Position numbers and translations under genes: made by a program. From assembly GCA_043802485.1 (NCBI GenBank), contig JAZDKZ010000001.1, forward strand, positions 64,622-128,621: DNA of 64,000 nucleotides. The letters are read 5' to 3'. Within the stretch, counting starts at the first letter, position 1. Each line of letters begins with the position of its first letter. The notes under the pieces are model-generated. The model was not told where the DNA came from and did no database searches. It saw only the letters and a list, made by a program, of their open reading frames with translations. Positions 46,141 through 61,940 of this stretch are shown one piece after another. The stretch comes from Candidatus Aenigmatarchaeota archaeon. GTDB lineage: Archaea > Aenigmatarchaeota > Aenigmatarchaeia > Aenigmatarchaeales > Aenigmatarchaeaceae.

Positions 46141-46806
46141 ATGAAAAATCTAATTGTATTAACACTGCTGATTCTGCTTTTGAGCACTGTGGCTGTTTTG
46201 GCAGCGCAGGAGCAAATAGGCGTGGCAGCAACAGCTACGGCGACAAAGGTAGCAGCTTCGCCAGGAAGGATAACTGCTGTCCAGAAGAACCAGTTCAAGG
46301 AGACGCTCAGGAACTATTTTTCCACGGTTCTGCACGGCTACGGCATAGGCTTCACTGAAGAGAACTATGTGACGGCAAAGTGGCACATTAGCAATGTAAA
46401 GATAGTTCCCAAGGTCAACGTGAACCAGATGATAAGGGAAGCAAAGCAGGGCGAGGATACTGACTGGGACGCTGTCCGCGAAAGGGTAAGAGAGGCTTTG
46501 AGCACAGGAGCGACGACCGTGAAAAAAGGCAGGATAAGGATAGCTGGAACAGACTATGCCTTGACCAATATTGTTGTCTCGGACGGCTCTGCAACAGCTG
46601 ACATCAACCAGCTGCCAGACTATGTGGCTTGCAAGGAAGCGGAACTGTCGGCAGAGGAATGCGAAACTAACGCGGCAAAAGTTGGTGAGTTTTCGCTGAC
46701 AAGAAAAACAAGCACAAGCGATGCAAAAGAGCCAAACGTATGGGCAGGAACCTTGACACTCAGCGACATAGTCTACACATTTGTCACGTTCTCCTATCCA
46801 AGGTGA
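46141..46806 (+). CDS. Secreted hypothetical protein
   Basis: Sec-type signal MKNLIVLTLLILLLSTVAVLA/AQE, with an SD (aggtga) upstream. No family assignment. Confidence 0.45.
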   Translation: MKNLIVLTLLILLLSTVAVLAAQEQIGVAATATATKVAASPGRITAVQKNQFKETLRNYFSTVLHGYGIGFTEENYVTAKWHISNVKIVPKVNVNQMIREAKQGEDTDWDAVRERVREALSTGATTVKKGRIRIAGTDYALTNIVVSDGSATADINQLPDYVACKEAELSAEECETNAAKVGEFSLTRKTSTSDAKEPNVWAGTLTLSDIVYTFVTFSYPR

Positions 46807-46810
46807 TTGA

Positions 46811-47098
46811 ATGAACAAGACAATAATAGCTGCTTCGGTCCTGATAATAGTAGCAGTGGTGGCGATATTGGTGCTGCCGATGCCGTTTAGTCAGGAGACA
46901 GGTCCAGCAGGAACAGAGCAGGAAGTGGTTATAGGGGATAGCGTACAAGTGACCATTGACGAGGAGTTTGCGCTTCAGGACATGTACATCGAGATGCTCA
47001 ACGAGGAGATGGACTCTTTGGACATGGAGCAGACTGACTTTAACGAAGAGATGGAAGACAGCATGGCAGAAGACATGAGCCAGTTCTACTACCAGTAA
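46811..47098 (+). CDS. N-terminally anchored acidic protein
   Basis: The anchor MNKTIIAASVLIIVAVVAILVL is followed by an acidic Met/Glu/Asp-rich tail with NEEMDSLDME and NEEMEDSMAEDM. It starts 4 nt after the previous ORF. Confidence 0.4.
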   Translation: MNKTIIAASVLIIVAVVAILVLPMPFSQETGPAGTEQEVVIGDSVQVTIDEEFALQDMYIEMLNEEMDSLDMEQTDFNEEMEDSMAEDMSQFYYQ

Positions 47099-47124
47099 TT
47101 TTTTATTTTCCCTTTCTTTTTATT

Positions 47125-47766
47125 TTATCTATGCAGCCTAAGCTCTCCACGTCTCACATAAGAAGAATCAGGCTCTATTTTCATCGCGTTCACAAGTTCT
47201 GGTTCTAAACTAGGGTTGCTCAAGGCCCCGCCATAGATGCCTTTTTTGCATGCTATCGTGTGGCCAGCGTTTATTGGGCCGAAAAGAGTGCACACAGTCC
47301 CTTGGGAACGGATGTCCCCGTCCGCTTCTAGAAGGGTCCCTGCTATTATGTCTCCTCTGGATGATATTGAGCCTCTACACACCAACTTTGTAAATGTCTC
47401 TATTCTTCCAGAGGATTTCAGGTCACCCTCCACAAGCATGTCCCTGATACTTGTGGTCCTCCCGACTTCCAGGTTCCCACGCACCTCTACCTCTACATTG
47501 GGAGCCAACAGACTGGAACCTACGACCAAGTCGCCATTAAAAACAAGATGTTTCTCTCCCTCATAGATAGTCATGTTGTTGTCGACTCGCGTATTTCCTT
47601 TAACACTCAGGCCCTTTGCGGCGATAATCTCATAAGCATGTATAGACGATTTCACTTCGCAGTAATTTTCGAATATGACCCTTTGGAAGGGAAACATGAA
47701 AGAACTTTCATAAGATTTTTTGTTCAATTCACTATCTTTGATTATCTTTGTTTTTAAAGAAACCAT
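47125..47766 (-). CDS. Beta-helical repeat protein, bactofilin-like (polymer-forming cytoskeletal family candidate)
   Basis: The stretch FNGDLVVGSSLLAPNVEVEVRGNLEVGRTTSIRDMLVEGDLKSSGRIETFTKLVCRGSISSRGDIIAGTLLEADGDIRSQGTV has periodic G/D-hydrophobic repeats and no signal peptide. The start was set at the ATG at 47766. Confidence 0.45.
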   Translation of the reverse strand: MVSLKTKIIKDSELNKKSYESSFMFPFQRVIFENYCEVKSSIHAYEIIAAKGLSVKGNTRVDNNMTIYEGEKHLVFNGDLVVGSSLLAPNVEVEVRGNLEVGRTTSIRDMLVEGDLKSSGRIETFTKLVCRGSISSRGDIIAGTLLEADGDIRSQGTVCTLFGPINAGHTIACKKGIYGGALSNPSLEPELVNAMKIEPDSSYVRRGELRLHR

Positions 47767-47771
47767 AAGAA

Positions 47772-47903
47772 TCAACCCATGAGCTCTAATCGCCTGACAG
47801 CGTCCCTTACGGCCTCTGACCTGTTGGGATAGATGCCGCTTTCGATTAGAACGTCTATCTTTTGGATCAATTCCCTTGTTAATCGTATTTGTATTGGATG
47901 CAC
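47772..47903 (-). CDS. Ribbon-helix-helix (CopG/NikR-type) DNA-binding protein, 43 aa
   Basis: Not in the ORF track. Hand translation from a GTG start gives (M)HPIQIRLTRELIQKIDVLIESGIYPNRSEAVRDAVRRLELMG, a classic RHH pattern. Its stop abuts the downstream bactofilin-like ORF. Confidence 0.55.
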   Translation of the reverse strand: MHPIQIRLTRELIQKIDVLIESGIYPNRSEAVRDAVRRLELMG

Positions 47904-48083
47904 ATTACCACTGTCTATTTATTGAAAGCAAAAAGATTTAAGCTTGTTTCAGGATTTAGTACAAGTGTTAGACAATTGTAGTTGATGCGTAATGCTAGTA
48001 AAGCAATAAATAGTTTCAAGTTCTATTAGGATTGTGTATTTTCTTAAAATGCAACATAAAAAAATTCTGTGTGAGGTGAGTAA

Positions 48084-51000
48084 ATGAAGCTATTCGGTAA
48101 AAGATTAAAAGGAACTTCTGGCGTCGCTATCGGCGCAATGGTCGTGCTCACGCTCGCGTTTTTAGTTGCTAGCGTCAGCTATATGATGCCTGGTTTGGCT
48201 GCTCACCTCAACTCAGCTGAAATACAACCAGAATGGTCTCCATCGGGTGATACAATAGATTATAGTGTGGAGATATGTAATGTTCCTGACGGTGGAGATT
48301 CGATTGATGAAGTTAGAATTTATGAGACAACGGGTTATACTATAGTAACCGCAGATGACAAAACAGGATGGTATAAATCACCATACAACCCTGTTAAGAA
48401 ATATTACCAATATACTGCTGAAGATTCTTCCTATTATATTGATGAGGGGGAGTGTACTACTTTCTATTTTAGAGCTACAACACCATTAACACCTTATTGT
48501 GATTTGCAATGGAAGTTTGAAACAAGAGATGTGAATGATGTTTGGAAATTTGCTTATGACTATACAAGCGTTGATGATATGGAACCCGTTATAATAAAAA
48601 CTTTAGGTGAACCTAAAATAGAAAACGGAGAGACATGGATAACTCAAGACACACAAATAAGGATTGAATTTTATGATCAAGGAACTTGTGGTGTAAGTGG
48701 CTTAGATTACTGTGATTATAGGTATGACATCGATGATGATACATCGATGCTATGGACAAGAATTCAGTGGCAAAGAGTCCAGCTTGGTAGCCCGCCACAC
48801 TATTTCTTCAACTTTACCTATAATGAAGACTCTCTGCATCATTTGGAGATAAGATGCTATGATGTAGCTGGTAACATGGCTTATCATGAACAAACTGAGA
48901 GAGTTGATGACACACCACCTGCAACAACAAAGGTTGTTAGTGAACCCAAGAAATTGGTTCCAATACCAGGAACACCATGGTTTGTTGAGTATGTTGACAC
49001 AACAACAACAATTACTTTGAATGCTGTTGATGGCGGTCCAATCTGTGCAATAGACGTTGACAAGACTTGGTACAAGAATGAAGTTTACACAGAACAAGTT
49101 TTAGCATCAGTTACCAATGGAAATGGTGGTCCTCACGGGTACGACTATTGTTATCATCCTGATTTGTACTGCAATGACAATTACTTGCCGATGCCTACAC
49201 CATACGATGCTCAGGATCCTGGTTGTATAAATGCAGGGCAAGAATATTGTACTGAATTTTGGGATCAAGTAACAAATGGAGGACCTTATCCTAGCTGGGA
49301 AGCATGTGTAGAAGATTATGCCCACAAAAAATGTAGTGTTGATTCATCATGGAAACTTTATGATGGAACGCCAATAACAAAGGACGAAGAATCATGCCAC
49401 ATCCTATATTACTTCAGTATTGACCATCTAGGAAACATGGAAAATATGCAATATAATTGTTTCTTTGTTGACAAGACACCACCAGTTGGAACAAAAGAAA
49501 TAGGAATACCAAGGATACCAATACCAGACAACGAATTCCAAACTATAGGTGAAGGGACTGCTGAATGGACAGACTCAAAATATTATTTTGGGAACTATTC
49601 TGTAAGATTATATGTTGTAGATGGTTCAAGTGACGTAGCTGCAGTTGAGTATGATGTTGACATAGCCTTGGAAGATATCGATGAATTATCATTCTGGCAA
49701 AAAATATCCAACACATATGGAGTTAATGTAATATTAGGGATAGATGCAGATGCAGATGGTACCTATGAATCTCTAGACAAGCCATGGCATTTCAGCCATG
49801 ACCCAAATGATTTGGGAGATGACTCATTCATAGAAATGGATGGAATGTATCTGAGTAGTGGAAGTTGGGAAGAAGTAAATGCTTTATCTATTTCACAATG
49901 GTGGACTCCAAATGACGATGGAAACGGTTTCTGTGCAGATTTTGGATGGAACTACTTGAGCGATATTCAATCAACAACTAGGTGTCGTGTGGAACCAACA
50001 GACAGAGTTAAAGTAATTAGGTTACTCATCGGTGGTTCAGGTACTTGGACAGACAAGGTTGCTTTTGTGGACGATATAACGTTGAACGGAGAAACAATTA
50101 GATTAGAACCACAAAATTATTGGGTAAGAGACGATACTTTAATAGCTGGAACACCAATAACATTGACTTGTGTAGACCCAGAACCACACCCATCAGGTGA
50201 TGAAGAAGTTTGTTTCAGGGTTTCATATGATATTGAACCTTGGTTAACAACAGATTATTGTACTGATGTGAAAGGTACAATGCAAGGTGGATCAGATAAT
50301 GATTGGTGTTGTGTAGATAATACTGCACAAATAGTCTTCCACGAAGACTCCTTGCATGATTTGGAATATTATTGTATAGATGCTGTTGATAAGCAAAGTG
50401 AAATTGATTTAGAATACTTTAGAGTTGATTCTCTACCACCAATAATAACTAAAGAAATGATTGGCGAAGACCATCTAGGATATAGAGATGGTGTATTAAA
50501 TGAAGATGCATGTCCACCAAAACCAGGACAGCCAGATGAATGTTTTGTGAGAGATCATGAAGAGAATGGAGTAAGAATCATAGTTGCTGATGACATGACT
50601 TACCCAGAATGTGCTGTTGGTGACTTAGATTGTTATTATGAACTTTGGTGGCAGACTGATTTGGATACGTGCATCAATGAGTTGGGTCCAGAGCACCTAT
50701 ACAACTTTGAAACAGATCAATGCTTTGTCGAAGGTGGCCAATTCGGAGAAGGAAAGGACATAATTTTCACAGAAGATTCGACGCATGAACTGTATATAGA
50801 ATGTGAGGATGCACTCGGAAACTATGTTGAAGATACTGAAATTTTCAAAGTTGATTCAACACCTCCGGAGACAGAAAAAACTTATGGAGAACCTTCAGAA
50901 GTTGATCCAACCTGTGAAAGTGAATGTATCAGCACGTGTACAAACTCTCTATTAGATAATGAATGTTTAGAAGATTGCTTGCACGAACATTGCTTATGGT

Positions 51001-52376
51001 GGATTAGCTCTTCGACATTAATAACATTAACTCCTGGTGAGGATGAGAAAGTTGGTCTTGACGAGACGCAATATAGAGTAAGTGGTGCATTAGCAGACAG
51101 CTTCTGCCACAATTGTGCAAACTGGATGCAATTATTGAGGCCAGACATGGGACCATGGCAAACATATGTAGATGGTCAACCATTCACAATACCACAAGAA
51201 TCCTGTCACGTCATAGAATATAGAAGCGTTGACTTGCTAGGAAATCAGGAAGATATCAGGTGGCAGTGTGTATTCGTAGATAACACACCACCTGAAGTGA
51301 ACAAAACAATAAGTGGTACACAAGAAGAATGGGAAGGAGACGATACATTCTATGAAAACTTAATAGCAAGATGTGCTGCAGGCGATATAGAATGTTGGAA
51401 GGTGACTTTAGGAACTACACTATCATTAGAATGTAGCGAACCGACTCACTCTGGTGACAGAAATGATATGTGTTTCAGATTAGAGTTGGATGGAGAACTT
51501 GAAACAGAGAAATATTGTGTTTGGTATGGAGGAATTGGAGTAAATGAAGATGATGACGAATATGATGAATGGTGTTGTTTAGATGGAGGAATAGAAGAAT
51601 TCCATTTCCTTGAAGAATCACAGCACGACTTGGAAGTAAAGTGTATAGACCCACTATACGAGAGCGCGATTGACGAGGAGAAGTTCAAAGTTGAGGGATG
51701 CCCATTCGATATATGTCTGAACAAGAAATGGAACCTAATATCAGTGCCATTTGTATTGTTCAATAGTGATCCAGATGTGGTATTTAATGAAGTAAAAGGA
51801 GACATAGCCTCGGTTTGGACATACGATCCTTCACAATGCCCGAGCGATGGTTGGTGTGTTTGGACACCAGATGGAAGCGGAAACTTAAATAATATCAGAC
51901 CCGGTTGGGGATATTGGGTACTTTCCAAAGAAGATCAAGTATGTTTTGAGATAGCAGGAAGTTTGATGAGCCCAACGGAGGTCCCACCTTCAAGAACATT
52001 ACAATCGGGATGGAATTTGATAGGTTATTACGGAAATACAGGATTGAATGAAGATAAATGGTGGTTTGAATGTGGTGACGATTTGGATCAGTGCTACATC
52101 GCAAGTAGACCAGTTTACTGCGCGCTGAACTCATTGGTTGACACACATATAGGCTTCCCGAGATGGAGTTCATTATATGCATACAATAACTACGGAAACG
52201 ATGATGCAGGATGGGATCCGATGGATGCATGCGTAGGTGGATTTTGGAATACAGAATATATGAATCCAGGTCAAGGATACTGGATAGAAATGGACGTTTC
52301 AGATGGCTATGCACCAGCTACTAACTGTATTTGGAACAGTGACTTAAAGTGTGTACTTGAATGGCCTGGGGCTTAA
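48084..52376 (+). CDS. Giant (1430 aa) cysteine-rich modular cell-surface protein
   Basis: The N-terminus is MKLFGKRLKG/TSGVAIGAMVVLTLAFLVASV. Module boundaries of the form [F/V]xVD[D/K/S/N]xPP recur at aa 163, 274, 462, 781, 923 and 1065, with a variant KVEGCP at 1203. Each is preceded by [E/Q][D/E]SxHxLE/Y...D..GN. An SD (gaggtga) lies upstream. Confidence 0.8.
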   Translation: MKLFGKRLKGTSGVAIGAMVVLTLAFLVASVSYMMPGLAAHLNSAEIQPEWSPSGDTIDYSVEICNVPDGGDSIDEVRIYETTGYTIVTADDKTGWYKSPYNPVKKYYQYTAEDSSYYIDEGECTTFYFRATTPLTPYCDLQWKFETRDVNDVWKFAYDYTSVDDMEPVIIKTLGEPKIENGETWITQDTQIRIEFYDQGTCGVSGLDYCDYRYDIDDDTSMLWTRIQWQRVQLGSPPHYFFNFTYNEDSLHHLEIRCYDVAGNMAYHEQTERVDDTPPATTKVVSEPKKLVPIPGTPWFVEYVDTTTTITLNAVDGGPICAIDVDKTWYKNEVYTEQVLASVTNGNGGPHGYDYCYHPDLYCNDNYLPMPTPYDAQDPGCINAGQEYCTEFWDQVTNGGPYPSWEACVEDYAHKKCSVDSSWKLYDGTPITKDEESCHILYYFSIDHLGNMENMQYNCFFVDKTPPVGTKEIGIPRIPIPDNEFQTIGEGTAEWTDSKYYFGNYSVRLYVVDGSSDVAAVEYDVDIALEDIDELSFWQKISNTYGVNVILGIDADADGTYESLDKPWHFSHDPNDLGDDSFIEMDGMYLSSGSWEEVNALSISQWWTPNDDGNGFCADFGWNYLSDIQSTTRCRVEPTDRVKVIRLLIGGSGTWTDKVAFVDDITLNGETIRLEPQNYWVRDDTLIAGTPITLTCVDPEPHPSGDEEVCFRVSYDIEPWLTTDYCTDVKGTMQGGSDNDWCCVDNTAQIVFHEDSLHDLEYYCIDAVDKQSEIDLEYFRVDSLPPIITKEMIGEDHLGYRDGVLNEDACPPKPGQPDECFVRDHEENGVRIIVADDMTYPECAVGDLDCYYELWWQTDLDTCINELGPEHLYNFETDQCFVEGGQFGEGKDIIFTEDSTHELYIECEDALGNYVEDTEIFKVDSTPPETEKTYGEPSEVDPTCESECISTCTNSLLDNECLEDCLHEHCLWWISSSTLITLTPGEDEKVGLDETQYRVSGALADSFCHNCANWMQLLRPDMGPWQTYVDGQPFTIPQESCHVIEYRSVDLLGNQEDIRWQCVFVDNTPPEVNKTISGTQEEWEGDDTFYENLIARCAAGDIECWKVTLGTTLSLECSEPTHSGDRNDMCFRLELDGELETEKYCVWYGGIGVNEDDDEYDEWCCLDGGIEEFHFLEESQHDLEVKCIDPLYESAIDEEKFKVEGCPFDICLNKKWNLISVPFVLFNSDPDVVFNEVKGDIASVWTYDPSQCPSDGWCVWTPDGSGNLNNIRPGWGYWVLSKEDQVCFEIAGSLMSPTEVPPSRTLQSGWNLIGYYGNTGLNEDKWWFECGDDLDQCYIASRPVYCALNSLVDTHIGFPRWSSLYAYNNYGNDDAGWDPMDACVGGFWNTEYMNPGQGYWIEMDVSDGYAPATNCIWNSDLKCVLEWPGA

Positions 52377-52402
52377 TTTTTTACCCCGACTTTTATTTTT
52401 TT
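52377..52402 (+). terminator. Oligo-T tract after the giant gene (archaeal intrinsic terminator candidate)
   Basis: ttttttaccccgacttttattttttt follows the TAA stop directly. Confidence 0.35.
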
Positions 52403-52466
52403 GATTTATAACCATAAACAAAGAACGTTTAAATAGTTTTTTGTTTAATTATTGCTGTTGAGTAAA

Positions 52467-53249
52467 ATGAATATTAAATTTTTAACAACGATGATTATTG
52501 CTCTAATGCTTTTTGCTAATATTGTTTTAGCAATACCAGCTATGTCACACAAGTTCTATGGAACCGTTACTATAAATGGTCAGCCAGCTCCTGATGGAAC
52601 AACAGTCACAGCAAAAATAAATGGTGTAGATGTATCAAGCACAACGACTTCTGGAGGTAATTATGGGGATGACTATTCTTTCGGAGTGCCTGACCCAGAC
52701 GGAATTAGAGTTGGAAGCGAAATAAGGCTTTTTGTAAATAATGTTTATAGTGGTGTTTCAGCGGTATTTTGCAATGCTTGCTATAATCTTTGTGGTACTG
52801 ATTCAGTAGGTTGTGCACCATTGAATTTGGCTGTTACAATCCCGACAACCACAGGTGGCGCTTCGCCTTCAGGCGGAGGAGCATCCACAACAACAAGCAC
52901 GACCGGAACAACTGGAACCACAGAAACAACCAGCGCAATCACTGAGACAGGTTGCCAGGAGAAATGGACCTGTTCGAATTGGGGCGAGTGTGTAAACGGC
53001 ATCCAGGCAAGAACCTGTGAGGACGAGAACGCCTGCGGAACCAACAGCAGGGAGCCTTTTGCGAGCCAACCATGCTCAGCAGAGGAAAGAAAGGAAGCGG
53101 AAGCATCTGCAGGGCCAATAGGATTCTTTTTGCTGTCATCAACCGACTTGGCAGTTGCCGCAGCGGTCGGAGCTGTGGCCTCGGCAGTGATCATATTCTT
53201 GATAATGAGAAGAAAACCCAAGCCAGTGCCTGTAGTTGTAGTTGGTTAG
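52467..53249 (+). CDS. Secreted, C-terminally anchored protein with a Thr/Gly/Ser-rich linker and a six-Cys TSP1-like module
   Basis: Signal MNIKFLTTMIIALMLFANIVLA, linker PTTTGGASPSGGGASTTTSTTGTTGTTETTSA, and module CQEKWTCSNWGECVNGIQARTCEDENACGTNSREPFASQPC. The C-terminal TM helix is followed by RRKPKP. Confidence 0.6.
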   Translation: MNIKFLTTMIIALMLFANIVLAIPAMSHKFYGTVTINGQPAPDGTTVTAKINGVDVSSTTTSGGNYGDDYSFGVPDPDGIRVGSEIRLFVNNVYSGVSAVFCNACYNLCGTDSVGCAPLNLAVTIPTTTGGASPSGGGASTTTSTTGTTGTTETTSAITETGCQEKWTCSNWGECVNGIQARTCEDENACGTNSREPFASQPCSAEERKEAEASAGPIGFFLLSSTDLAVAAAVGAVASAVIIFLIMRRKPKPVPVVVVG

Positions 53250-54066: not shown

Positions 54067-55109
54067 ACAAAGTGTCAACCATCATAATACCTGTCTACAA
54101 CGAGGAGGGCGTCATAGCAGAGACGCTGATGAAGAACGCAGCAGCTTTCGAGAAAATGCGAAGCAGCATCCAGGAGATAATTGTTGTTGATGACGGGTCG
54201 ATAGACAACTCGAAAAGGGAGATAAATAATTTCATAAGGAACTACAAGGGCAGGCTGAAGATAAGGCTTGTCCCGCACACCACGAACATGGGAAAGGCCC
54301 AGGCCCTTAACACAGGCATAAGGCATGCCAAGGGCGATTACGTGCTGCTTTCCGACTCTGACTCATGGATGGACAAGGACACCCCTGAAAAGATCATCCT
54401 TGAGATGGCAGAGTCAGGAGCCTCGTGCATTGTCGGCCATGTCGTGCCTGCGCAGAACACCCTGCTCACCAGGCTGCAGAAGATGGAGTACGACTTTGAC
54501 CAGAAGATAATCAGGACAGTGCAGTCCATCTACACCAACGTCATATCCATACCAGGCCCGCTCTACTTTACCAAGAAGAGCATAGTTGAAAAGATAAAGT
54601 TCGACAAGTACAGCATCGTGGAGGACTTTAAGATAGGCATAGAGATGAACAGGAAAGACCAGAGGATATTGCCTTCTGACGCCATCGTCTACTCCTATTC
54701 GCCCACAAAATTATCACAGCTGAGAAAGCAGAGGCTGAGATGGTTCGGCGGCATACTCAAAGAGTCCATAGTCAACAGGGCAGTCTGGAAAAAGAACCCG
54801 TTCTACCTTTTCAATGTCATAATGTGCTTTGCATCCTTCCTTTTCACCATAGCAACAATGGCGCTGTTCAGCCTCATGATTTATTTTGCGACCAATCCGG
54901 CCAACCTCATGGTGAACTTTTTCATATTCTTCCTTTTCTTCTGCTTTGCCATATCCGGCATGTACGCCTTTGCCGTGAGAAAGTTCGAGCTGGACGCCTT
55001 CATAGCCTTCCCCATGTACCTGACCTTCCTTTTCCTGATCAGGACAGAGGTGGTGATAAAGGTGGTTCTGGGAAGGAAGTTCACCTGGGGCACCAGGGAA
55101 TACCGCTAG
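54063..55109 (+). CDS. Family 2 glycosyltransferase, processive beta-polysaccharide synthase type
   Basis: Contains IIIPVYNEE, VVDDGSIDNS, LLSDSDS (DxD), SIVEDFKIG and QRLRWFGG (the Q[RQ]xRW motif). About four C-terminal TM helices follow. Confidence 0.85.
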   Translation: MNKVSTIIIPVYNEEGVIAETLMKNAAAFEKMRSSIQEIIVVDDGSIDNSKREINNFIRNYKGRLKIRLVPHTTNMGKAQALNTGIRHAKGDYVLLSDSDSWMDKDTPEKIILEMAESGASCIVGHVVPAQNTLLTRLQKMEYDFDQKIIRTVQSIYTNVISIPGPLYFTKKSIVEKIKFDKYSIVEDFKIGIEMNRKDQRILPSDAIVYSYSPTKLSQLRKQRLRWFGGILKESIVNRAVWKKNPFYLFNVIMCFASFLFTIATMALFSLMIYFATNPANLMVNFFIFFLFFCFAISGMYAFAVRKFELDAFIAFPMYLTFLFLIRTEVVIKVVLGRKFTWGTREYR

Positions 55110-55453
55110 CACTTTTCAGAATAGGTGTTGGTCATGACACTCACAAGGTCTGGCAGCATCTCTAGGCTTTTGGCAATGCTTAACTTCAGGACATCCTTGA
55201 AGACGTCATAGAAAATGACAAGCTGCTGGTTGAGCATGTCCGAGACCCCAAAGTCCTGCATCAGCTTTAACACATCTATTCTAACGGTCTGGTTGAGGGT
55301 GATGTTGGGCATGTTTGTGGCATTGATCGCTATCTTGGGTATCATTATGGTCAGGTTGCCGACGGTTATGTTGACTGCAAGCACGGGCGTCACAGAAAGC
55401 AGGAAAATAGCCGCCATTATGAGCATTTTCATGAGAATAGATATTTTCGCCAA
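55106..55453 (-). CDS. Small secreted protein dense in N-glycosylation sequons
   Basis: Signal MAKISILMKMLIMAAIFLLSVTPVLA, then NIT, NLT, NAT, NIT and NQT within ~35 aa. Confidence 0.45.
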   Translation of the reverse strand: MAKISILMKMLIMAAIFLLSVTPVLAVNITVGNLTIMIPKIAINATNMPNITLNQTVRIDVLKLMQDFGVSDMLNQQLVIFYDVFKDVLKLSIAKSLEMLPDLVSVMTNTYSEKC

Positions 55454-55485
55454 GCTTATATAGATATATTTCCTACGTGCCAGTG

Positions 55486-55510: not shown

Positions 55511-55521
55511 AATAAAAGCCT

Positions 55522-55947
55522 ATGAATAAGATTTCCCTTAGGCTTATCGAGCCCATAGACGAGAACAATGATGTTGACATAATAGCAAGATTCATGCCTG
55601 AGATTGGGTCGATATGCTCCAATCAGACAAGGGCAGGCATAATCCACCTCATGATAAACACGCCCCAGACCATGCATTCCTTGAAGGTCGAGGAGATTTG
55701 CTTTAAACTGGGCATAAGGCAGTCTGTGGCAATCCATCATCTGGAGAGGCTGGAGGACTGGAAATTGGTTGAAGTTAAAAAAAACCAGTCGTACGGCAAC
55801 AGAACCAGGAGAAGCATATGGGGTCTTAATCTTAAGCATCCTACCTGGATATCTGAATGCTATAAAAGTGTAAGGGCTCACTTCTTTTCCGAGAACGAGC
55901 TGGACAGCGTAACCAATGTCAACAAGAGCCTGAGATTCTGCAGCTAG
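55522..55947 (+). CDS. ArsR/SmtB-family winged-helix transcriptional regulator
   Basis: Reads SNQTRAGIIHLMINTPQTMHSLKVEEICFKLGIRQSVAIHHLERLEDWKLVEVKK. Confidence 0.7.
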   Translation: MNKISLRLIEPIDENNDVDIIARFMPEIGSICSNQTRAGIIHLMINTPQTMHSLKVEEICFKLGIRQSVAIHHLERLEDWKLVEVKKNQSYGNRTRRSIWGLNLKHPTWISECYKSVRAHFFSENELDSVTNVNKSLRFCS

Positions 55948-56259
55948 AAAAGAATTTTGCAGCATTTTTCTGCAATATCAAAAATCCTTGTATGACTGAT
56001 TGTCTTATCTTTGTACAACAAAATCCGAATAACTATTTAAAGGAATGATGTTATGTAGCATTAATGTAATAATTCTGTACTAGTTTTGTGCGTAATTTGT
56101 CTCAACACCTCTTAAATACTTTTTTTCATTCATTCTGTTTATGCTTAACTTTCTAAAAGTTAGAGCGCCGAGGAGGGGCGCTATAACAAGCCGAGGTTCA
56201 CCGCAAAGCTTGGGCTTTCCTAGGGGAGCAAAATACCCAAAATATTATGGTGAAAAAAT

Positions 56260-56814
56260 ATGAATAAAATAATCGCAGCACTAGTTGGTTTGATGATGTT
56301 GGCAACACCTGTTTTAGCATGTCATGGACCTCAATGTTTACCAGACGACGCAACAATATCAACATTCTTCTTCGGAAGCGGAAGGAATGTATGGTTTAAT
56401 GATGTAGTCGGTGTAGACGAAAGAGTTGACGACGATTATGTGGTTGAAGACATGTGGACAATGAAGGGAGACATGACTGTTGTTCAAAACGTAAACATTG
56501 ACTTGCACGGATTTTCATCTGCAGAAGTAATAATGAACAAAGAAGCATGGATAAACCCAGCATACCACTACAGTGCAAACGTAGAGAAGGAAGTAGTCTG
56601 GGATGAAGAAGGAGAAGTCTACAGAGAAGCGATAACTGGTGGTGTATATAGCATATTTAGCGCAGGTGCTGATGAGGGAATTGTACAGGATGACATCAGA
56701 AGCGAAGCAAATCTATACATATTCCAGTCTGTAGGTTTGAACACAGGAACAAGATGTGAATACCCAAGCATGCCAGGTTTACCAGAAGGGCCAACCTGTT
56801 CATGGTGCCAGTAA
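56260..56814 (+). CDS. Secreted hypothetical protein
   Basis: Signal MNKIIAALVGLMMLATPVLA/CHG, with Cys pairs near both termini (CHGPQC and CEYPSMPGLPEGPTCSWCQ). Confidence 0.5.
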   Translation: MNKIIAALVGLMMLATPVLACHGPQCLPDDATISTFFFGSGRNVWFNDVVGVDERVDDDYVVEDMWTMKGDMTVVQNVNIDLHGFSSAEVIMNKEAWINPAYHYSANVEKEVVWDEEGEVYREAITGGVYSIFSAGADEGIVQDDIRSEANLYIFQSVGLNTGTRCEYPSMPGLPEGPTCSWCQ

Positions 56815-56828
56815 TATAATGAACCAAC

Positions 56829-56856
56829 CTTTATTTTTTTCTTTCCTTTTATTTTT
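56829..56856 (+). terminator. T-rich tract after 56260..56814 (terminator candidate)
   Basis: ctttatttttttctttccttttattttt begins 15 nt after the stop. Confidence 0.3.
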
Positions 56857-56912
56857 CAAGGAGAAACGGAAAGCATTTAAAGCTTTATAATTAACTACAA
56901 GATGGTAACAAA

Positions 56913-57731
56913 ATGAAGACAATAAGTTTGACAACGATTTTGATGATTATTCTATTCAGCACTGTGGCGTTCGCCACATCTGTTAACACAGACTATGAGG
57001 GAATGGGCGACTTTTACATGGAGACAACAATCATATCCCCTGTAGCGCCAGACATAACCGACACAGTCGATATCAACACAGGATGTGATGGTGGTTGCTG
57101 CTGCTGCCCAGACTGCTTTGGCGAGTACTCTGGCAACCAGTACATGACAAACAACCCGTTCTCCGCATCCGTTCATACTGCCGAAGTTACAGAGGGCTGT
57201 GTTGTCATAGAGCAGTACTATACTGATTACATCGACGGCCATACCATAGAGAGCTACTATTATACTTACTTTAATGGGACAGGAACTGCAGAATCATACA
57301 TATATGTTGTTCCAGGATTAGCTGAGAGCTACCAACTGGCAAACGGAACCGGTTCGTCCTATGTTTCATTCAGCCAGATAGCCTACATAGGAACTGAGTT
57401 TGATTTCTCAACAACATACGGCGGAGCCGTGTGGCTCTGCGCACCAGGCTATGCCGGTCTGTACAACCAGTACTATTACAGCGGCGGCCAGATATACTAC
57501 AACAGTGAGATGGGGCTGTACTGCTCGCCCACAGATGGGAGCAGCATGGATAACTTCCTGTTCGCCTCAGCCACAGACCACTTTAGTCTGAATAGCCAAT
57601 TGGAAATTGGCGACATTGAAAGTACCCAGAATGTTGGTGTGGGCGAAGGAGAGGCAGAGTACGGCTTTACAGCCATTTTTTACGACATGTTTGATGATCT
57701 TTATTTCGGTTTCGAGATGGAGTTAGGGTGA
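56913..57731 (+). CDS. Secreted Tyr/Gly-rich protein with a CDGGCCCCPDC cysteine cluster
   Basis: Signal MKTISLTTILMIILFSTVAFA, 7 Cys within 11 residues at aa 58-68, and numerous Y-rich segments (YYTDYIDG, YYYTYFNG, YNQYYYSGGQIYYN). Confidence 0.5.
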   Translation: MKTISLTTILMIILFSTVAFATSVNTDYEGMGDFYMETTIISPVAPDITDTVDINTGCDGGCCCCPDCFGEYSGNQYMTNNPFSASVHTAEVTEGCVVIEQYYTDYIDGHTIESYYYTYFNGTGTAESYIYVVPGLAESYQLANGTGSSYVSFSQIAYIGTEFDFSTTYGGAVWLCAPGYAGLYNQYYYSGGQIYYNSEMGLYCSPTDGSSMDNFLFASATDHFSLNSQLEIGDIESTQNVGVGEGEAEYGFTAIFYDMFDDLYFGFEMELG

Positions 57732-57735
57732 AAAA

Positions 57736-58803
57736 ATGAACAAAATAATAATAGCAACAATAATGGGAATGATTTTGATAGCTCCGCTCGCATTAGCAGA
57801 CCAGGTTAACTTGGACATAAATGTCAACGGAACAGCCAACCTCAACATAACCGTTGACGCGGACGACACCTTGGCAAGGGAAATGATTACTGATATGCAG
57901 GAAGACGCCTATGGAACAATGACTGGTTCAGGGCCAAAAGACATGGTATTGGACGAGATAAAAGCAGGCGGGGGAAACCCAATCGTGACCACAGACGACA
58001 TGGGCACGATATACAGTCTTTGCGAGGACCCGTTCCTGAAGCAGTACCTGAACAACATCGGCAACCTACCACCTTTGGAATTCGTCGACTATGTGAAGGC
58101 TTTGGGTTATGACGACGAGGCTCACATAACCCTCATTTGGACCATATGCCAGCAGCTGTACATAACTCAGCAGGAAGCTGCCTGGTCTTCTGACTCTGGC
58201 GTGAAGCTGCCAGACATGGTGAGGTACATCGCAGGCGGTATAAGCTGGCTGATGGGCAAAGAGGTCAACCCGCCAGAAGGCTACAAGCAGATTGGAACAG
58301 CTTTGGACAGCTACTTTGCAAGCGACAGGGACGTGTGGATTCTGGTGAACAAGATAAGGGAGCTGGAAATAAGGCTGGAGACGCTCGAGAAGACCATGGA
58401 AAGGGTTGACACTGATACCTACTGCGACGCAAAGTTGGAGGCCATGGAAAAGTACAACCTAAGCTATGTGAAATGCGGCGAGAACTCTACCATCTATGCA
58501 CAGGTCAATCCAGACATTTTCGGATATGACATCTTGGGTTATACCAATGATGACAGATGCGAGGAAGACTGGACCTGCACAGAATGGGGCGAATGCGAGG
58601 ACGGAGAGATGAACAGAGTATGTACCGACGTTAATCTGTGCGGCACAACAAAGGACATACCTTTGGAGAGGCAGGGCTGCGTGGTGATAGAGATGCTGGT
58701 TGAGAAGCAAGTCGAGCCTGAAACACCACAGTTCTCTTACGTGGGCGTGTCTGATGCTCTTTCAAACCTTCAAGGTTTCCTTTTCCCATTGTTTATTGTT
58801 TAG
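57736..58803 (+). CDS. Secreted protein with a six-Cys TSP1-like module and a hydrophobic C-terminus
   Basis: Signal MNKIIIATIMGMILIAPLALA. The module CEEDWTCTEWGECEDGEMNRVCTDVNLCGTTKDIPLERQGC is co-linear with the one in 52467..53249. It starts 4 nt after the previous ORF. Confidence 0.55.
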   Translation: MNKIIIATIMGMILIAPLALADQVNLDINVNGTANLNITVDADDTLAREMITDMQEDAYGTMTGSGPKDMVLDEIKAGGGNPIVTTDDMGTIYSLCEDPFLKQYLNNIGNLPPLEFVDYVKALGYDDEAHITLIWTICQQLYITQQEAAWSSDSGVKLPDMVRYIAGGISWLMGKEVNPPEGYKQIGTALDSYFASDRDVWILVNKIRELEIRLETLEKTMERVDTDTYCDAKLEAMEKYNLSYVKCGENSTIYAQVNPDIFGYDILGYTNDDRCEEDWTCTEWGECEDGEMNRVCTDVNLCGTTKDIPLERQGCVVIEMLVEKQVEPETPQFSYVGVSDALSNLQGFLFPLFIV

Positions 58804-58981
58804 ATGGGGCAACTGAATTTTTTTGTAGCTTCTATGTAATTCGGCTAGGTTTAAACGTGGGCTATTTATCCTTTGGACTACAGTAGGATTCGGCTTCTAC
58901 AAGCCTTAGAATTTTTTAATTTCCTTTCTTTTTTCTTTTATTTTTATCAGAGATTTAAAGTTTTGTTTTCTATATAGGACT

Positions 58982-59770
58982 ATGAGAAGACTAACAGAGC
59001 AGATCACCGGTCTACCAGTTTATAAAAAACAACTTGGAAAGTTTACAATATTACACCCTGTAGACCAAATAAAGGGAATGATTATAAGCGCCAACACAGA
59101 CTCCAGCACAGAGAGCCTTTTCCCGCATCTTTCACAAGAGGATTTAACAAAAATTTTTGAAAGATCAAAAAATTACAGTGTCCTCAACTCAAAAATTATT
59201 AAGCATGATACGAGATTTACAGGCGTATATTCTGCAGAAATAGGCTCAATGTCAAACCAAGATATCAATATTCACATCCCCAACATAAGAAACGTTCGTA
59301 ATCCAGAATTAGTAGAACATTACTGTGATTGTAAAAAGATATCAAAATTAAGATTCAAAACTGATATTAACTTCTTACCTATTTTGGATGATTGGAAACT
59401 ATCATATGATAGAAAATACTATGCGGATTGGACTTGCCCACATATATGTGGTCTTGATTTCTATTTACGTAAAAAACTTAACGTTCAATCACTGGGAATA
59501 GAAGACAGGATAGAAAAGGGAGATTTTCATAATGACTATGTAAAACTTCTAGAAAAATACCCCGAATATCCTGATAGTGTTTTTAATTTTGTCTTTACCC
59601 ATTATACGCCTATCTACGTCAGTGCTGTGGACCATATTAATGAAATCAGAAGTTCTTATGGCTTGAAGGAATCATCATATCTTTCTGATCCAAGAATTAG
59701 AAATGTCATACCAAAACTAAACGTTAGTGAAGTAAAATTAAAAGAAATGGCTTCTCATATCGGTTTCTAA
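58982..59770 (+). CDS. Hypothetical cytoplasmic protein, possible SWIM-type zinc finger
   Basis: HYCDCKK...(35 aa)...WTCPHICG loosely fits CxC-x(n)-CxH. The gene is AT-rich and has no signal peptide. Confidence 0.3.
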   Translation: MRRLTEQITGLPVYKKQLGKFTILHPVDQIKGMIISANTDSSTESLFPHLSQEDLTKIFERSKNYSVLNSKIIKHDTRFTGVYSAEIGSMSNQDINIHIPNIRNVRNPELVEHYCDCKKISKLRFKTDINFLPILDDWKLSYDRKYYADWTCPHICGLDFYLRKKLNVQSLGIEDRIEKGDFHNDYVKLLEKYPEYPDSVFNFVFTHYTPIYVSAVDHINEIRSSYGLKESSYLSDPRIRNVIPKLNVSEVKLKEMASHIGF

Positions 59771-59828
59771 TTCATTTCCTGCTCTGAATAGGCATCAACT
59801 TTATATTATTGCTGTCAGAATTATAATA

Positions 59829-61940
59829 ATGAAAAAAGTTATTCTATTTTCCATATTGGCAATAGTCTTGCTGAGCTCAATAACACTGGCAATAACAGAT
59901 GCGAAAGCGTCAAAAATTAAGTCTAATAGAGTCATAGCGCGCACAAATTCTATGGCAGATAGGATGCTATTCAAAATGCAGGGGTGCAAAATAATTCACG
60001 AGCTGGAAGATGCGACTGCAATGAATTGCCCGGAGGCGATCGCTTCGAGATTCGAGCAGGATGAAGTTCTTTATATAATGGATTTACAAGCAGACCAACA
60101 AATAGGGGCGGACAAGGTCTGGGCTTTGGGCTATGACGGTACTGGGGTAACGGTCGCGGTTTTGGATACCGGGGTTGATTATAGTCATGTAGAGCTTGCG
60201 GACAGCATAGCTGGAGGGATGAGCTTTGTCTCATACACAACCAGCTATTCTGATGACCATGGGCATGGAACGCATGTCTCTGGAATAATAACCGCCAATG
60301 GTGTTGTGACCGGCGCAAAGGGAGTTGCTCCAGGAGCAAGGGTATGGATGGCAAAGGTTTGCGATTCTGGCGGTTCTTGCTATACAAGCGATATAGCAGC
60401 TGCGATTGATTATGTGGTTAATGGGCCTGATGGTGACCCAAGCACAGAAGATGGACTAGCAAAAATAATGAGCATAAGCTTGGGCGGCGGAGGAACCTTT
60501 AGGGCAAATTGTGATAATGACTACTTGGCTTCAAAAGTCAACTGGGCAGTAAGCAAAGGTGTGACGGTTGTAGCAGCAGCAGGCAATACCGGAGGAAAAG
60601 TCAGCAGCCCTGGTTGCGCAAGTGGGGCAATAGCGGTCGGGGCGGTCGACAAAGGCGATGTAAGGCCGTCTTGGTCTGGCTCAGGCAGTGCGTTAGATAT
60701 AGTTGCGCCAGGGGTGAGCATTTATTCCAGTCTGCCGGGCGGCACTTATGCGTCTTGGAGCGGTACTTCAATGGCAACACCGCATGTTTCAGCAACAGTG
60801 GCTTTGATGAGGCAGGTGAACCCGAGCTTGATGGATACTCAAATCAAAAGCATGCTTTATTCGACAGCCAAAGATTTAGGAAGTGCAGGATGGGATAGAT
60901 ATTACGGCTGGGGAAGAGTCGATGCTTACAACGCATACTTAGCTGTTAAACCAATAGAACCTGAATGCACAATTGATTCAGAATGTGATGACGGATTATA
61001 CTGTAACGGAGCTGAGGTATGTGTTTCAGGAGTTTGCCAATCAGGAACAGCAATTGTTTGTTCTTATCTAGATGACCAATGCAATGTTGGAGTTTGCGAT
61101 GAGGGTTCAGATAGTTGTGTAGCTCAACCAGTGTCTGATGGAACTTCATGTGATGATGGTTTGTTCTGTAATGTAGGAGAAACCTGCCAAAGCGGAGTTT
61201 GTACTGGAGGGAAAGCTTACAATTGTGGTGTTAATGATTCTTGTTCCATTGCTTCTTGTGATGAATCATCAGATAGCTGTTCAAGTTCACCAGTAGCAGA
61301 CGGAACAATTTGTGACGATAATTTGTTCTGTACAATAAATGACGTTTGTACAGTTGGTGTTTGCGGTGGAGAACAAAGAAACTGTGACGATGTTATAGGT
61401 TGTACTGCTGATTCTTGCAACGAGGGAACAGGCTCTTGCGATAATACGCCGGACAATTCAATATGCGACAATGGTTTATTCTGCGATGGAACAGAAACCT
61501 GTAGTGCTTTAACAGGATGTCAACTTGGAAATCCAATAACTTGTAATGATAATAATGAATGCACAATAGATAATTGTGTTGAAGGTTCAGGAACATGTGA
61601 AAACATCTGGCCGGCATGCGGTTTGGCGGATGAATGCTGCGGACCAAGTTGCATAAATGACTCAGACTGCGCAACAGCTGTTAAATGCTGGAGCGGAGAT
61701 TATCAATTTCTCTACAGGAATTCGAATCAGATGAAAAAATTCTGCAAGTGTGCAATGGGTACTTATGGATACAATAGTTACAGTTATAGTTGGGGAAGGA
61801 AAACAGTTTATTATTATTTAGACTCAGAAAACAATGAGAACTGGGTTGTGAGTTCAAGGTCATCATATCTTCCAGTAAACAAAGTAGTTTGTGCAGACAA
61901 TGTAACATACCCTACTGACGAAGATTACTACTATGGTTAA
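59829..61940 (+). CDS. Secreted subtilisin-like serine protease (S8) with four tandem 8-Cys repeats and a Tyr-rich C-terminal domain
   Basis: Signal MKKVILFSILAIVLLSSITLA. The catalytic triad motifs are VAVLDTGVD, HGTHVSGII and GTSMATPHVSA. Four ~50-aa repeats follow, of the form CDDGLFCNG.E.C..G.C..G....C.....C....C.EG...C. Confidence 0.9.
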   Translation: MKKVILFSILAIVLLSSITLAITDAKASKIKSNRVIARTNSMADRMLFKMQGCKIIHELEDATAMNCPEAIASRFEQDEVLYIMDLQADQQIGADKVWALGYDGTGVTVAVLDTGVDYSHVELADSIAGGMSFVSYTTSYSDDHGHGTHVSGIITANGVVTGAKGVAPGARVWMAKVCDSGGSCYTSDIAAAIDYVVNGPDGDPSTEDGLAKIMSISLGGGGTFRANCDNDYLASKVNWAVSKGVTVVAAAGNTGGKVSSPGCASGAIAVGAVDKGDVRPSWSGSGSALDIVAPGVSIYSSLPGGTYASWSGTSMATPHVSATVALMRQVNPSLMDTQIKSMLYSTAKDLGSAGWDRYYGWGRVDAYNAYLAVKPIEPECTIDSECDDGLYCNGAEVCVSGVCQSGTAIVCSYLDDQCNVGVCDEGSDSCVAQPVSDGTSCDDGLFCNVGETCQSGVCTGGKAYNCGVNDSCSIASCDESSDSCSSSPVADGTICDDNLFCTINDVCTVGVCGGEQRNCDDVIGCTADSCNEGTGSCDNTPDNSICDNGLFCDGTETCSALTGCQLGNPITCNDNNECTIDNCVEGSGTCENIWPACGLADECCGPSCINDSDCATAVKCWSGDYQFLYRNSNQMKKFCKCAMGTYGYNSYSYSWGRKTVYYYLDSENNENWVVSSRSSYLPVNKVVCADNVTYPTDEDYYYG

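Follow-up and report, generated by a model that had tools for sequence, protein, structure and literature searches.

What does a dense run of genes for exported proteins build in a small archaeal genome, and do these genes work together as one system? The question is raised by a 64,000-nucleotide (nt) stretch from a Candidatus Aenigmatarchaeota archaeon (assembly GCA_043802485.1, contig JAZDKZ010000001.1, positions 64,622 to 128,621 of the forward strand), which we call the window and whose numbering we use throughout. A first-pass annotation, made from the sequence alone, had described the interval 46141-61940 as a 16-kb secretome island of suspected mosaic origin and as a candidate system for host attachment or cell-cell interaction. 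Our analysis confirms, as far as sequence comparison can, that the interval is a genuine cluster of predicted cell-surface and secreted-protein genes of a DPANN archaeon (Aenigmatarchaeota). Its core is an uncharacterised DPANN-wide gene pair together with an unannotated six-Cys domain, and its general kind is a known one: a surface protein, an anchor and envelope accessories. Judged from their distribution in the sequences compared, the 15 predicted genes do not form one unit. They fall in three layers, namely the DPANN-wide pair, a set of phylum-level accessories and a clade-specific cassette; only the pair (a large protein and its membrane partner) travels together across DPANN, the other genes being phylum-level, restricted to the clade or sporadic.

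All 15 open reading frames (ORFs) of the interval, including the 43-codon ORF at 47772-47903(-) assigned to a ribbon-helix-helix (RHH) regulator, are present where they had been placed. Ten of the 15 start, as had been predicted, with a basic n-region and a hydrophobic core of 15-20 residues, mostly followed by an AxA-type cleavage site. In a crude greedy ORF call over the whole window, Sec-type signal or anchor starts were found in 10/14 ORFs inside the interval vs 10/68 elsewhere (Fisher p = 5e-5). It must be noted that the export calls are heuristics, i.e. they were made by hydropathy and inspection, and for the large protein also from the alignment of 120 homologues.

The core consists of the following features (lengths in amino acids, aa):

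48084-52376, +: large protein, 1,430 aa, exported, 59 Cys (4.1%); one module with an NCBIfam OmpL47-type barrel match of 60.4 bits (cutoff 40)
51297-52373, +: family-defining C-terminal 359 aa of the large protein; three tandem beta-sandwich domains in the AlphaFold2 (AF2) model
52467-53249, +: type I membrane partner of about 260 aa; alternative start TTG at 52452
52953-53075, +: six-Cys module, copy 1, 41 residues, in the partner: CQEKWTCSNWGECVNGIQARTCEDENACGTNSREPFASQPC

The large protein had been called modular and Cys-rich, and its 59 Cys and VDxTPP-bounded modules bear this out. After the signal peptide come an N-terminal domain, which contains a PEWSP motif, some six beta-sandwich modules that end in VDxTPP, and finally a conserved C-terminal region; most modules carry inserted Cys-rich loops, and a Cys-poor insert occupies approximately aa 470-680. 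Self-BLAST detected no internal repeats at E<0.01, the modules being recognisable only by their VDxTPP junctions. The exact sequence of the window's protein is not on record, and the protein gave neither a sequence match in the PDB nor an S-layer match in Pfam or NCBIfam. It has more than 130 homologues of 1,400-2,400 aa; the family belongs to the archaea, where it hardly extends beyond DPANN. Where the source is given, these homologues come from metagenome-assembled genomes (MAGs) labelled Aenigm-, Woese-, Pace-, Nano-, Micr- and Altiarchaeota, and Diapherotrites. None of the >130 has been named for a function: of those with a name, nearly all are entered as 'hypothetical protein', and two are named after a domain only (VWA; Myxococcus Cys-rich repeat). 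In 120 homologues a common signal is followed by A-H-T-S-x-A-x-L-x-P-E-W-S. Conservation of this A-x-A / H-T-S cleavage region argues for a signal of the signal peptidase I type, and it rules out a Class III (pilin-type) signal, which the 'KG' of the n-region had brought to mind.

The C-terminal 359 aa lie at the extreme C-terminus in 113/115 homologues and are 33-60% identical. The N-terminal and middle parts, by contrast with this conserved end, are shuffled between genomes, and some homologues have LamG_3, CBM_4_9, VWA, integrin-beta or DUF4215 matches. The AF2 model of the C-terminal region (pLDDT 80) is a string of beta-sandwiches; its Foldseek matches in the PDB, at E values around 1e-4, are FnIII/Ig arrays (contactins, fibronectin, cytokine receptors), Vibrio RbmA and Aureispira GhpA, with no S-layer protein among the top 50. 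Two further ideas about the large protein were dropped: a haem-binding or cytochrome role of its Cys residues (no CxxCH was seen by eye in it or in the subtilisin described below) and a diversity-generating retroelement aimed at its gene (no template/variable repeat pair in the window).

The membrane partner has a signal peptide, a beta-rich N-domain, a Gly/Thr-rich linker, the six-Cys module, a PIGF juxtamembrane motif, a transmembrane helix and an RRKPKP tail. A homologue of it lies directly downstream of the large gene or genes in 12/12 loci that we inspected by hand (the window and the loci L001 and L013-L022), which belong to seven nominal DPANN phyla. For a broader count we used 66 metagenome loci that extend 900 nt or more past a large-family C-terminus. 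In 51/66 a gene with a partner-type N-domain follows within 400 nt on the same strand, in 9 it follows 0.6-5 kb downstream, and in 6 there is none; in the hand-inspected L013, L015 and L022 the gap between large gene and partner holds a second large gene. The partner family comprises 3,475 representative clusters at E<=1e-3 and 610 at E<=1e-10. The window's partner has no Pfam and no PDB match; the scFv (single-chain antibody) entries that the family profile found in the PDB are artefacts of the Gly-rich linker. The partner C-terminus (window 53112-53249) shows a juxtamembrane motif (I/P)(T/S)G(F/A/L) about 28 residues before the Lys/Arg-rich tail. It reads ITGF, PTGF or ITGA in the partner homologues P0137-P0286 and L013-L022, and PIGF in the window.

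The six-Cys module, which the first-pass annotation had rightly noticed as shared, occurs in the partner (265 aa when read from the TTG start) and in one other protein of the cluster:

57736-58803, +: 355-aa secreted protein with a short hydrophobic tail, starting 4 nt past the 272-aa gene; six-Cys module, copy 2, at 58558-58680

The consensus of the module is CxExWxCxxWxxCxxGxQxRxCxDxNxCGTxxxxPxxxQxC. Elsewhere it is found in 4-10 tandem copies in many proteins, beside Kelch, FG-GAP, fn3 or PG-binding domains; a profile search found no Pfam model and no PDB sequence match for it. Orthologues of the 355-aa protein occur in L001 (74% identity), L018 (48%) and L016 (47%), and more distant members of its family have a C-terminal transmembrane helix and a basic tail. 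An accessory function in the envelope may be proposed for this second six-Cys-module protein.

L001 is an Aenigmatarchaeota MAG of the Zod_Metabat set, L018 is a further Aenigmatarchaeota genome, and L015 and L016 are lower-GC relatives with a shorter version of the cluster. In the comparison with L001 and L018, no products of the cluster have diverged further than the large protein (31-43%) and the partner (44-47%); most neighbours are 65-87% identical. Where large genes stand in tandem (L013, L015, L022), a single partner follows both, and the paralogues share the C-terminal region. For the C-terminal region of the window's protein the best match among these relatives is the first large gene of L015 (60%), followed by L018 (49%) and L001 (41%), which is the reverse of the ranking by flanking genes; this suggests that paralogues were sorted differently, or alleles exchanged, at the large-protein locus. 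The strict gene order, the one partner per set of tandem paralogues, the conserved C-terminus on an otherwise variable protein and the parallel fast divergence of the two proteins together lead us to infer that the partner tethers the large protein.

The reading that we prefer, with a probability of roughly 0.6, is that the cluster comprises the genes of a surface fibre or adhesin tethered to the membrane, along with supporting genes, and has the DPANN-wide two-gene module as its core. The large protein would be a Sec-exported rod of Ig/FnIII/OmpL47-type beta-sandwich domains, containing about 4% Cys. The partner would serve as a membrane stalk which holds the large protein at the surface via the conserved C-terminal region of the latter, while the variable outer modules would reach away from the cell and engage ligands, for which glycans or proteins of a partner cell, of a substrate or of a virus come into question. 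Attachment to a host would be one plausible ligand-binding role in such a model. The supporting genes would have been added around the core pair within Aenigmatarchaeota.

Several observations weigh against the fibre or adhesin model. The contact between partner and large protein is argued only from adjacency and parallel divergence. The window's large protein has no binding domain recognisable in Pfam, and its fold matches are generic, with TM-scores <=0.2 owing to the domain arrangement and with no ligand named. N-glycosylation sequons are fewer than expected in the large protein (3 vs 8.4), in the partner (0 vs 2.9) and also in the subtilisin, which is unusual for archaeal surface proteins. 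The high Cys content of exported proteins in organisms of anoxic habitats is unexplained, and no solved deacetylase structure is significantly similar to the DUF2334-like protein of the cassette described below. Finally, some homologues carry the labels of lineages not known to be episymbiotic (Altiarchaeota, Diapherotrites), and this speaks against host attachment as the sole role.

A more far-reaching proposal is that the giant Cys-rich protein and the six-Cys partner with its ITGF motif constitute an undescribed surface apparatus of most DPANN archaea, which contacts other cells, whose outer modules set partner specificity, and whose anchor is maybe processed in a sortase-like manner. We put this forward tentatively and consider it to be on the unlikely side. 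Full-text literature searches on surface, Cys-rich and secreted proteins of DPANN and Aenigmarchaeota gave no description of the large-protein family or of the pair. As to processing, LPXTG_anchor matches are weak and occur in 5/40 partner-family members (best E 0.012), and no sortase or archaeosortase was noticed near the examined loci, where no dedicated search for them was made.

Another possibility is that the large protein and its partner are an S-layer, equivalent to SlaA (the canopy) and SlaB (the membrane stalk), and that the rest of the cluster serves envelope biogenesis. The gene order is that of slaA-slaB: a large exported gene product without C-terminal anchor is followed by a small one with a Thr/Gly linker and a C-terminal transmembrane helix. 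The pair is very widespread in DPANN, and both proteins are rich in beta-sandwiches, like SlaA/SlaB and the S-layer candidates of Nanobdella (bioRxiv 10.1101/2023.10.27.564410). The low GC content at third codon positions (GC3), which the pair has in common with a nearby cold-shock gene (0.27), could reflect high expression. However, about 4% Cys and the deficit of sequons contrast with the archaeal S-layer proteins described: that of Micrarchaeum is nearly devoid of sulfur-containing residues, and the Nanobdella S-layer candidate has 15 glycosylation sites (bioRxiv 10.1101/2023.10.27.564410). The experimentally supported S-layer protein of Micrarchaeota belongs to a different, Cys-poor family (TIGR01564/TIGR01567), yet MAGs labelled Micrarchaeota carry the large-protein family. 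Tandem paralogues and variable inserted binding domains are atypical of lattice proteins, and none of the 50 best fold matches was an S-layer protein. On this balance we regard an S-layer as unlikely.

The second layer of the cluster appears, from its distribution, to be of phylum level. It comprises two regulators, the Cys-repeat S8 protease and further six-Cys proteins, that of 355 aa among them, and the Pfam matches uphold the identification of the first three in the first-pass annotation:

47772-47903, -: RHH (CopG-type) regulator, 43 aa, divergent from the large gene; PF01402 RHH_1, E 1.3e-7, 31.8 bits (cutoff 20.5)
55522-55947, +: ArsR-family winged-helix regulator, 141 aa; PF01022 HTH_5, 26.1 bits (cutoff 22)
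59829-61940, +: S8 subtilisin, 703 aa, secreted, with a C-terminal Cys-rich repeat array (period 54 aa) and a Tyr-rich tail

RHH_1 genes of 42-44 aa occupy the same divergent position in L015, L016 and L018. Orthologues of ArsR are found in L001 (87%), L018 (74%), L016 (63%) and L015 (46%); in L015 and L016 the arsR gene is directly upstream of the large gene, and homologues lie near a large gene in 13/79 metagenome loci. The two regulators probably control the module of large protein and partner.

The identity of the protease is clear (PF00082, 190.5 bits, E 5e-56; Savinase in the PDB, E 1.4e-44), and its catalytic triad is intact (LDTGVD at 112, HGTHVSG at 146, GTSMATPH at 312). Its orthologue in L018 is 85% identical over the full length, and full-length homologues lie near large genes in L083 and L085 (60-64%) and in L055 (39%). 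This secreted subtilase, borne on a stalk of Cys-rich repeats, may process or remodel surface proteins. In L021 (positions 1001-4871), a MAG labelled Altiarchaeota, an S8 gene (55% to the catalytic domain of the window's protein) and a gene for an 839-aa VWA protein precede the large gene, thus linkage of a protease to the pair recurs outside Aenigmatarchaeota. A further side observation concerns L001, where an extra ORF of 1,052 aa (11943-15101) lies between ArsR and the homologue of the 184-aa protein; it matches Disintegrin above the cutoff, in three stretches (48.3 bits), and has Cys-rich repeats in common with the C-terminal part of the S8 protease of the window.

The third layer, which the comparison of loci points to as clade-specific, is a glycosyltransferase family 2 (GT2) synthase with processive-type motifs and its DUF2334-like companion:

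53314-54066, +: 250-aa protein, with signal peptide, extracytoplasmic alpha/beta domain and C-terminal transmembrane helix; distantly DUF2334-like; overlaps the GT2 start by 13 nt
54054-55109, +: GT2 membrane glycosyltransferase of processive-synthase type, 351 aa, identified by Pfam and motifs

The signature of processive GT2 enzymes is D, DxD, (T/S)ED and Q(R/Q)xRW, with C-terminal transmembrane helices. The window's enzyme, which the first-pass annotation had correctly called processive, has VVDDGS at 44 (D44-D47), GKAQALN, SDSDS/DxD at 100-104, VEDFK at 189 (ED 190-191) and QRLRW at 226-230, and its hydrophobic segment at approximately 249-340 would make about three transmembrane helices. 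The Pfam matches are strong (PF00535, 102.6 bits, cutoff 23.3, E 3e-29; PF13632, 70.2 bits, cutoff 27, E 2.7e-19). The best NCBIfam matches stay under the cutoff: PgaC_IcaA (TIGR03937) with 114.6 vs 422.3 bits, and NodC with 84.2 vs 550. A scan of 185,579 species genomes (one per species) returned a single close relative, that of L001 (79%), the next best match being 28% identical; L018 has an orthologue of 76%.

The family of the 250-aa protein has 16 detectable members, in which H144 and the NTDIV stretch (172-176) are invariant, and Q63, H64, G65, H68, D169, D170 and D177 nearly so. That it might be a deacetylase had been suggested before, and DUF2334 is a member of the glycoside hydrolase/deacetylase superfamily. 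The label proved weak. DUF2334 matches the window's protein with 16.3 bits (cutoff 26), at profile positions 3-43 only, and 12/17 family members at E<=0.1 (best E 4e-7). The match covers just the RVDD strand, which is at the start of the profile, yet near the end of the 250-aa protein's ectodomain, and the candidate metal residues (H64, H68, H144, D169, D170) are in permuted order relative to the DUF2334 alignment. The AF2 model has a high pLDDT of 85, but its best Foldseek match in the PDB has E 0.06, TM-scores are <=0.33, and no deacetylase appears among the top 50, so we rejected the fold of carbohydrate esterase family 4 (CE4) and retain deacetylase activity as a hypothesis.

The 13-nt overlap between the 250-aa gene and the GT2 start supports a functional pair and suggests co-translation. 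In this clade only, GT2 and the extracytoplasmic DUF2334-like protein might make, and possibly trim, a beta-linked surface polysaccharide. One could go further and take the whole cluster for an exopolysaccharide or biofilm-matrix system, in which GT2 extrudes a polymer like poly-N-acetylglucosamine (PNAG) or chitin, the DUF2334-like protein modifies it, the large protein scaffolds it and S8 remodels it. All motifs of a processive synthase are in place, the best matches of GT2 are PgaC/IcaA and NodC, the overlap of the two genes fits, and RbmA, a biofilm scaffold of Vibrio, is among the structures that the large protein resembles in fold. But GT2 is far under the PgaC and NodC cutoffs, no deacetylase fold was confirmed, and the cassette is absent from the loci where the core pair is found: the window, L001 and L018 are the only loci that have the 250-aa gene, GT2 and the convergent 115-aa gene in combination, and the GT2 cassette is in 0/79 metagenome loci and in none of L013-L017 and L019-L022. 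Its absence at most loci with the core pair indicates that the pair works without the cassette, and a matrix system is in our opinion improbable.

The remaining genes of the interval are these:

46141-46806, +: 221-aa secreted protein; signal MKNLIVLTLLILLLSTVAVLA|AQ, by hydropathy
46811-47098, +: 95-aa protein with N-terminal membrane anchor and acidic tail (22% D+E), starting 4 nt past the 221-aa gene
47125-47775, -: 216-aa cytoplasmic protein of repetitive, beta-helix-like sequence; 4-nt overlap with the RHH gene
55106-55453, -: 115-aa secreted protein, convergent with the GT2 gene; orthologues in L001 (51%) and L018 (39%)
56260-56814, +: 184-aa secreted protein with CSWCQ C-terminus; signal ends VLA|C; L001 orthologue 42%; present in three metagenome loci
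56913-57731, +: 272-aa secreted, very acidic protein; L001 orthologue 67%
58982-59770, +: 262-aa cytoplasmic protein; GC 0.33, GC3 0.28

Orthologues of the 221-aa protein, for which no Pfam or NCBIfam family was matched, stand beside Nre/radical SAM in L001 (77%), L018 (67%) and L015 (48%), and those of the 95-aa protein are 57% (L001) and 54% (L018) identical. The 216-aa protein had been described as bactofilin-like, a label that is weak: its Pfam Bactofilin (PF04519) score is 18.6 bits, below the cutoff of 27.9, phmmer found no bactofilin match in the PDB, and its gene has no homologue in the seven related loci L001 and L013-L018. The Tyr-rich, Cys-cluster protein of the first-pass annotation is the 272-aa protein, and the description was accurate: Tyr makes up 10.3% of its residues, K and R together occur just once, and a CDGGCCCC cluster lies at aa 58. 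Profile searches gave no family match for it, and among the loci compared its gene was found only in L001. The 262-aa gene was seen only in L016 and two metagenome loci; the L016 homologue (37%) adjoins that of the 355-aa protein, and the window's 262-aa protein has neither a Pfam nor a PDB match. Two further details may be recorded. The 115-aa secreted protein at 55106-55453(-) has five N-x-S/T sequons in 30 residues, where about one is expected, and the signal of the 184-aa protein (56260-56330) ends in a lipobox-like V-L-A-C, so lipid modification is possible.

How did these genes come together at this site? The order of genes in the related genomes (identities to the window's proteins) is as follows:

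L001: radical SAM, 221-aa (77%), 95-aa (57%), large (about 42%), partner (44%), 250-aa (69%), GT2 (79%), 115-aa on the minus strand (51%), ArsR (87%), extra 1,052-aa ORF, 184-aa (42%), 272-aa (67%), 355-aa (74%)
L018: Nre, 214-aa on the minus strand (48% to the window's ORF at 43902-44570), 221-aa (67%), 95-aa, RHH on the minus strand, large as two ORFs (31-40%), partner (47%), 250-aa (65%), GT2 (76%), 115-aa on the minus strand, ArsR (74%), 223-aa ORF, 355-aa (48%), S8 (85%), HEPN (82%), MNT (78%), YchF
L016: RHH on the minus strand, ArsR, large gene, partner, 274-aa ORF, 355-aa homologue, 262-aa homologue; before YchF/PAP2
L015: RHH on the minus strand, ArsR, two large genes, partner; before YchF/PAP2

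Synteny of the cluster is near-complete with L001 and L018, which have the same flanking genes, Nre/radical SAM to one side and HEPN/MNT/YchF to the other, and partial with L015 and L016, whose shorter version stands ahead of the same YchF/PAP2 genes. The homologues are thus clustered in relatives, not scattered. Since the window, L001 and L018 agree in position and gene order, the cluster can be regarded as a stable part of the chromosome, occupying the same site in related genomes, and not as a recently acquired island.

The patchy composition reported by the first-pass annotation is real, and striking at GC3, but it is not special at the 1-kb scale, where GC varies from 0.32 to 0.50 across the whole window. 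GC3 is 0.30 in the large gene, 0.36 in the partner and 0.35 in S8 (0.28-0.36 when the 184-aa and 262-aa genes are included), against 0.66-0.71 in the GT2 cassette and about 0.55 in typical genes. The same difference is seen in the three related genomes, where genes for secreted Cys-rich proteins have GC3 of 0.23-0.37 vs 0.5-0.7 in neighbouring cytoplasmic genes, and it includes even the 85%-identical S8. The low-GC3 stretches are 48084-53249, 56260-56814 and 58982-61940 in the window, 3742-9214 in L001, and 4281-9933 and 12922-17080 in L018. Their recurrence in orthologous loci indicates a long-standing trait of this class of genes rather than a mark of recent transfer; possible causes are expression level, the kinetics of translation or secretion, and repeated allele exchange. 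There is no integrase, flanking tRNA or long repeat at the interval, the only direct repeat of at least 40 nt inside it being the 162-nt Cys-repeat period within the S8 gene, and no relatives were found on IMG/VR viral contigs. With the synteny and the shared GC3, these negative results led us to reject recent horizontal acquisition or a mobile element.

A horizontally acquired 16-kb mosaic whose 15 genes act as one host-attachment system is therefore highly improbable: the GC3 heterogeneity is real, gene content at the cluster edges differs between genomes, and the large C-terminal region is nearer to the distant low-GC L015 than to L001 or L018 (which concerns one gene and fits allele exchange or paralogue sorting), but the proposal is largely refuted by the like position and gene order in three genomes, by the low GC3 of the orthologues and by the lack of mobility signs, and the GT2 cassette, ArsR, S8 and the core pair differ in phyletic range.

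That the cluster is flanked by core genes is only partly correct: on the left there are PFK, Nre (41864-43129), two radical-SAM genes and a cold-shock protein; on the right there is a HEPN/MNT pair, followed by a remnant of a YchF-type GTPase gene. Between radical SAM and the cluster (45484-46068) the window has genes for a cold-shock-domain protein with an Asp/Ser-rich acidic tail (45484-45747, GC3 0.27) and for a protein of 53 aa that has two hydrophobic segments; L001 lacks both of these genes at this place, its radical-SAM gene being immediately adjacent to the 221-aa homologue. After the cluster, at 61950-62889(-) in the window and at 17090-18030 in L018, a helix-turn-helix and nucleotidyltransferase (MNT) gene stands with a gene for a small alpha-helical, presumably HEPN, protein, and the same HEPN/MNT pair lies directly after the partner gene in L020 (11132-12045), a Pacearchaeota MAG. 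MNT-HEPN genes are found in unusually conserved, housekeeping contexts in DPANN (Makarova et al., PMC6393860). The YchF-type gene, which follows the cluster in L015, L016 and L018, is reduced in the window to its last 29 codons (62932-63018(-)); the sequence upstream of the remnant, to the window end (62932-64000 region), is AT-rich (GC 0.34) and unrelated; the gene is either interrupted by an insertion or truncated. Far from the cluster, at 4120-4214(-), Rfam detected a second tRNA (50.4 bits, 95 nt) that ARAGORN missed and that may be an intron-containing archaeal tRNA.

What had been an anonymous secretome island can now be described as a defined and testable two-gene module, whose members are linked, with the partner downstream, in about 90% of the loci examined, and which has a C-terminal region that defines the family, outer modules that diverge fast, and an unannotated six-Cys domain occurring in thousands of protein clusters. 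The pair bears on the question how DPANN archaea recognise and hold other cells. Up to now, candidates for such recognition have been put forward for single genomes, namely SPEARE proteins, lectin-like and pectin-lyase-like proteins, and pili. Makarova and colleagues (PMC6393860) listed secreted 'dark matter' families specific to DPANN, and a study of the Nanobdella surface proposed SlaA-like and SlaB-like candidates of a different family (bioRxiv 10.1101/2023.10.27.564410). If the pair is a surface fibre or adhesin, it would offer a common handle for antibodies, cryo-electron tomography and comparative genomics of host specificity; if it is an S-layer, DPANN would have a second type of S-layer, one rich in Cys. 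The locus also contains a caution, because a patchiness resembling mosaic acquisition turned out to be a stable difference in codon usage between genes for secreted proteins and their neighbours.

It is useful to compare the locus with known systems. The short (I/P)(T/S)G(F/A/L) motif of the partner, followed by a hydrophobic helix and a Lys/Arg-rich tail, resembles the LPXTG/sortase and PGF-CTERM/archaeosortase signals, but the best LPXTG E value is 0.012, the window's copy reads PIGF, and the distance of about 28 residues from motif to tail exceeds that of PGF-CTERM. The C-D-D-G-L-F-C-N-G-x-E-x-C repeats at the C-terminus of S8 are similar to the Myxococcus Cys-rich repeat/DUF4215 (PF13948) and to disintegrin-like modules. 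PF13948 is carried by large-protein homologues and by a neighbouring gene in L020, and the extra ORF of L001 passes the Disintegrin cutoff, whereas the window's S8 repeats fall short of E<=0.01. We know of no system in which the function of PF13948-type or disintegrin-like Cys repeats on secreted proteins has been established.

The cassette corresponds to PgaC/PgaB, IcaA/IcaB and NodC/NodB in having a membrane GT2 with D, DxD, ED and QxxRW, encoded with an exported protein distantly related to DUF2334. It differs in that the window's GT2 has no N-terminal transmembrane helices and scores 114.6 bits against the 422-bit equivalog cutoff, and in that the model of the 250-aa protein matches no solved CE4 enzyme and the protein has its conserved motifs in permuted order (HGxxH before RVDD) with respect to the place where DUF2334 aligns.

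For the core pair, SlaA/SlaB of Sulfolobales is a close parallel in layout, since there too a large, exported, beta-sandwich-rich protein without anchor is encoded ahead of a small stalk with signal peptide, Ser/Thr/Gly linker and C-terminal transmembrane helix. No sequence or fold match was found between the two systems; the window's pair is Cys-rich and sequon-poor, its large gene is often duplicated in tandem with variable inserts, and its partner has a six-Cys module in place of a coiled coil. The bacterial Big/OmpL47/FnIII adhesins (Leptospira OmpL47, Vibrio RbmA, Aureispira GhpA) are like the large protein in being strings of small beta-sandwiches with D-x-T-P-P-type junctions. In contrast to these adhesins, the large-protein family is archaeal and combines Cys-rich loops and an invariant C-terminal region of three domains with an obligatory anchor gene downstream.

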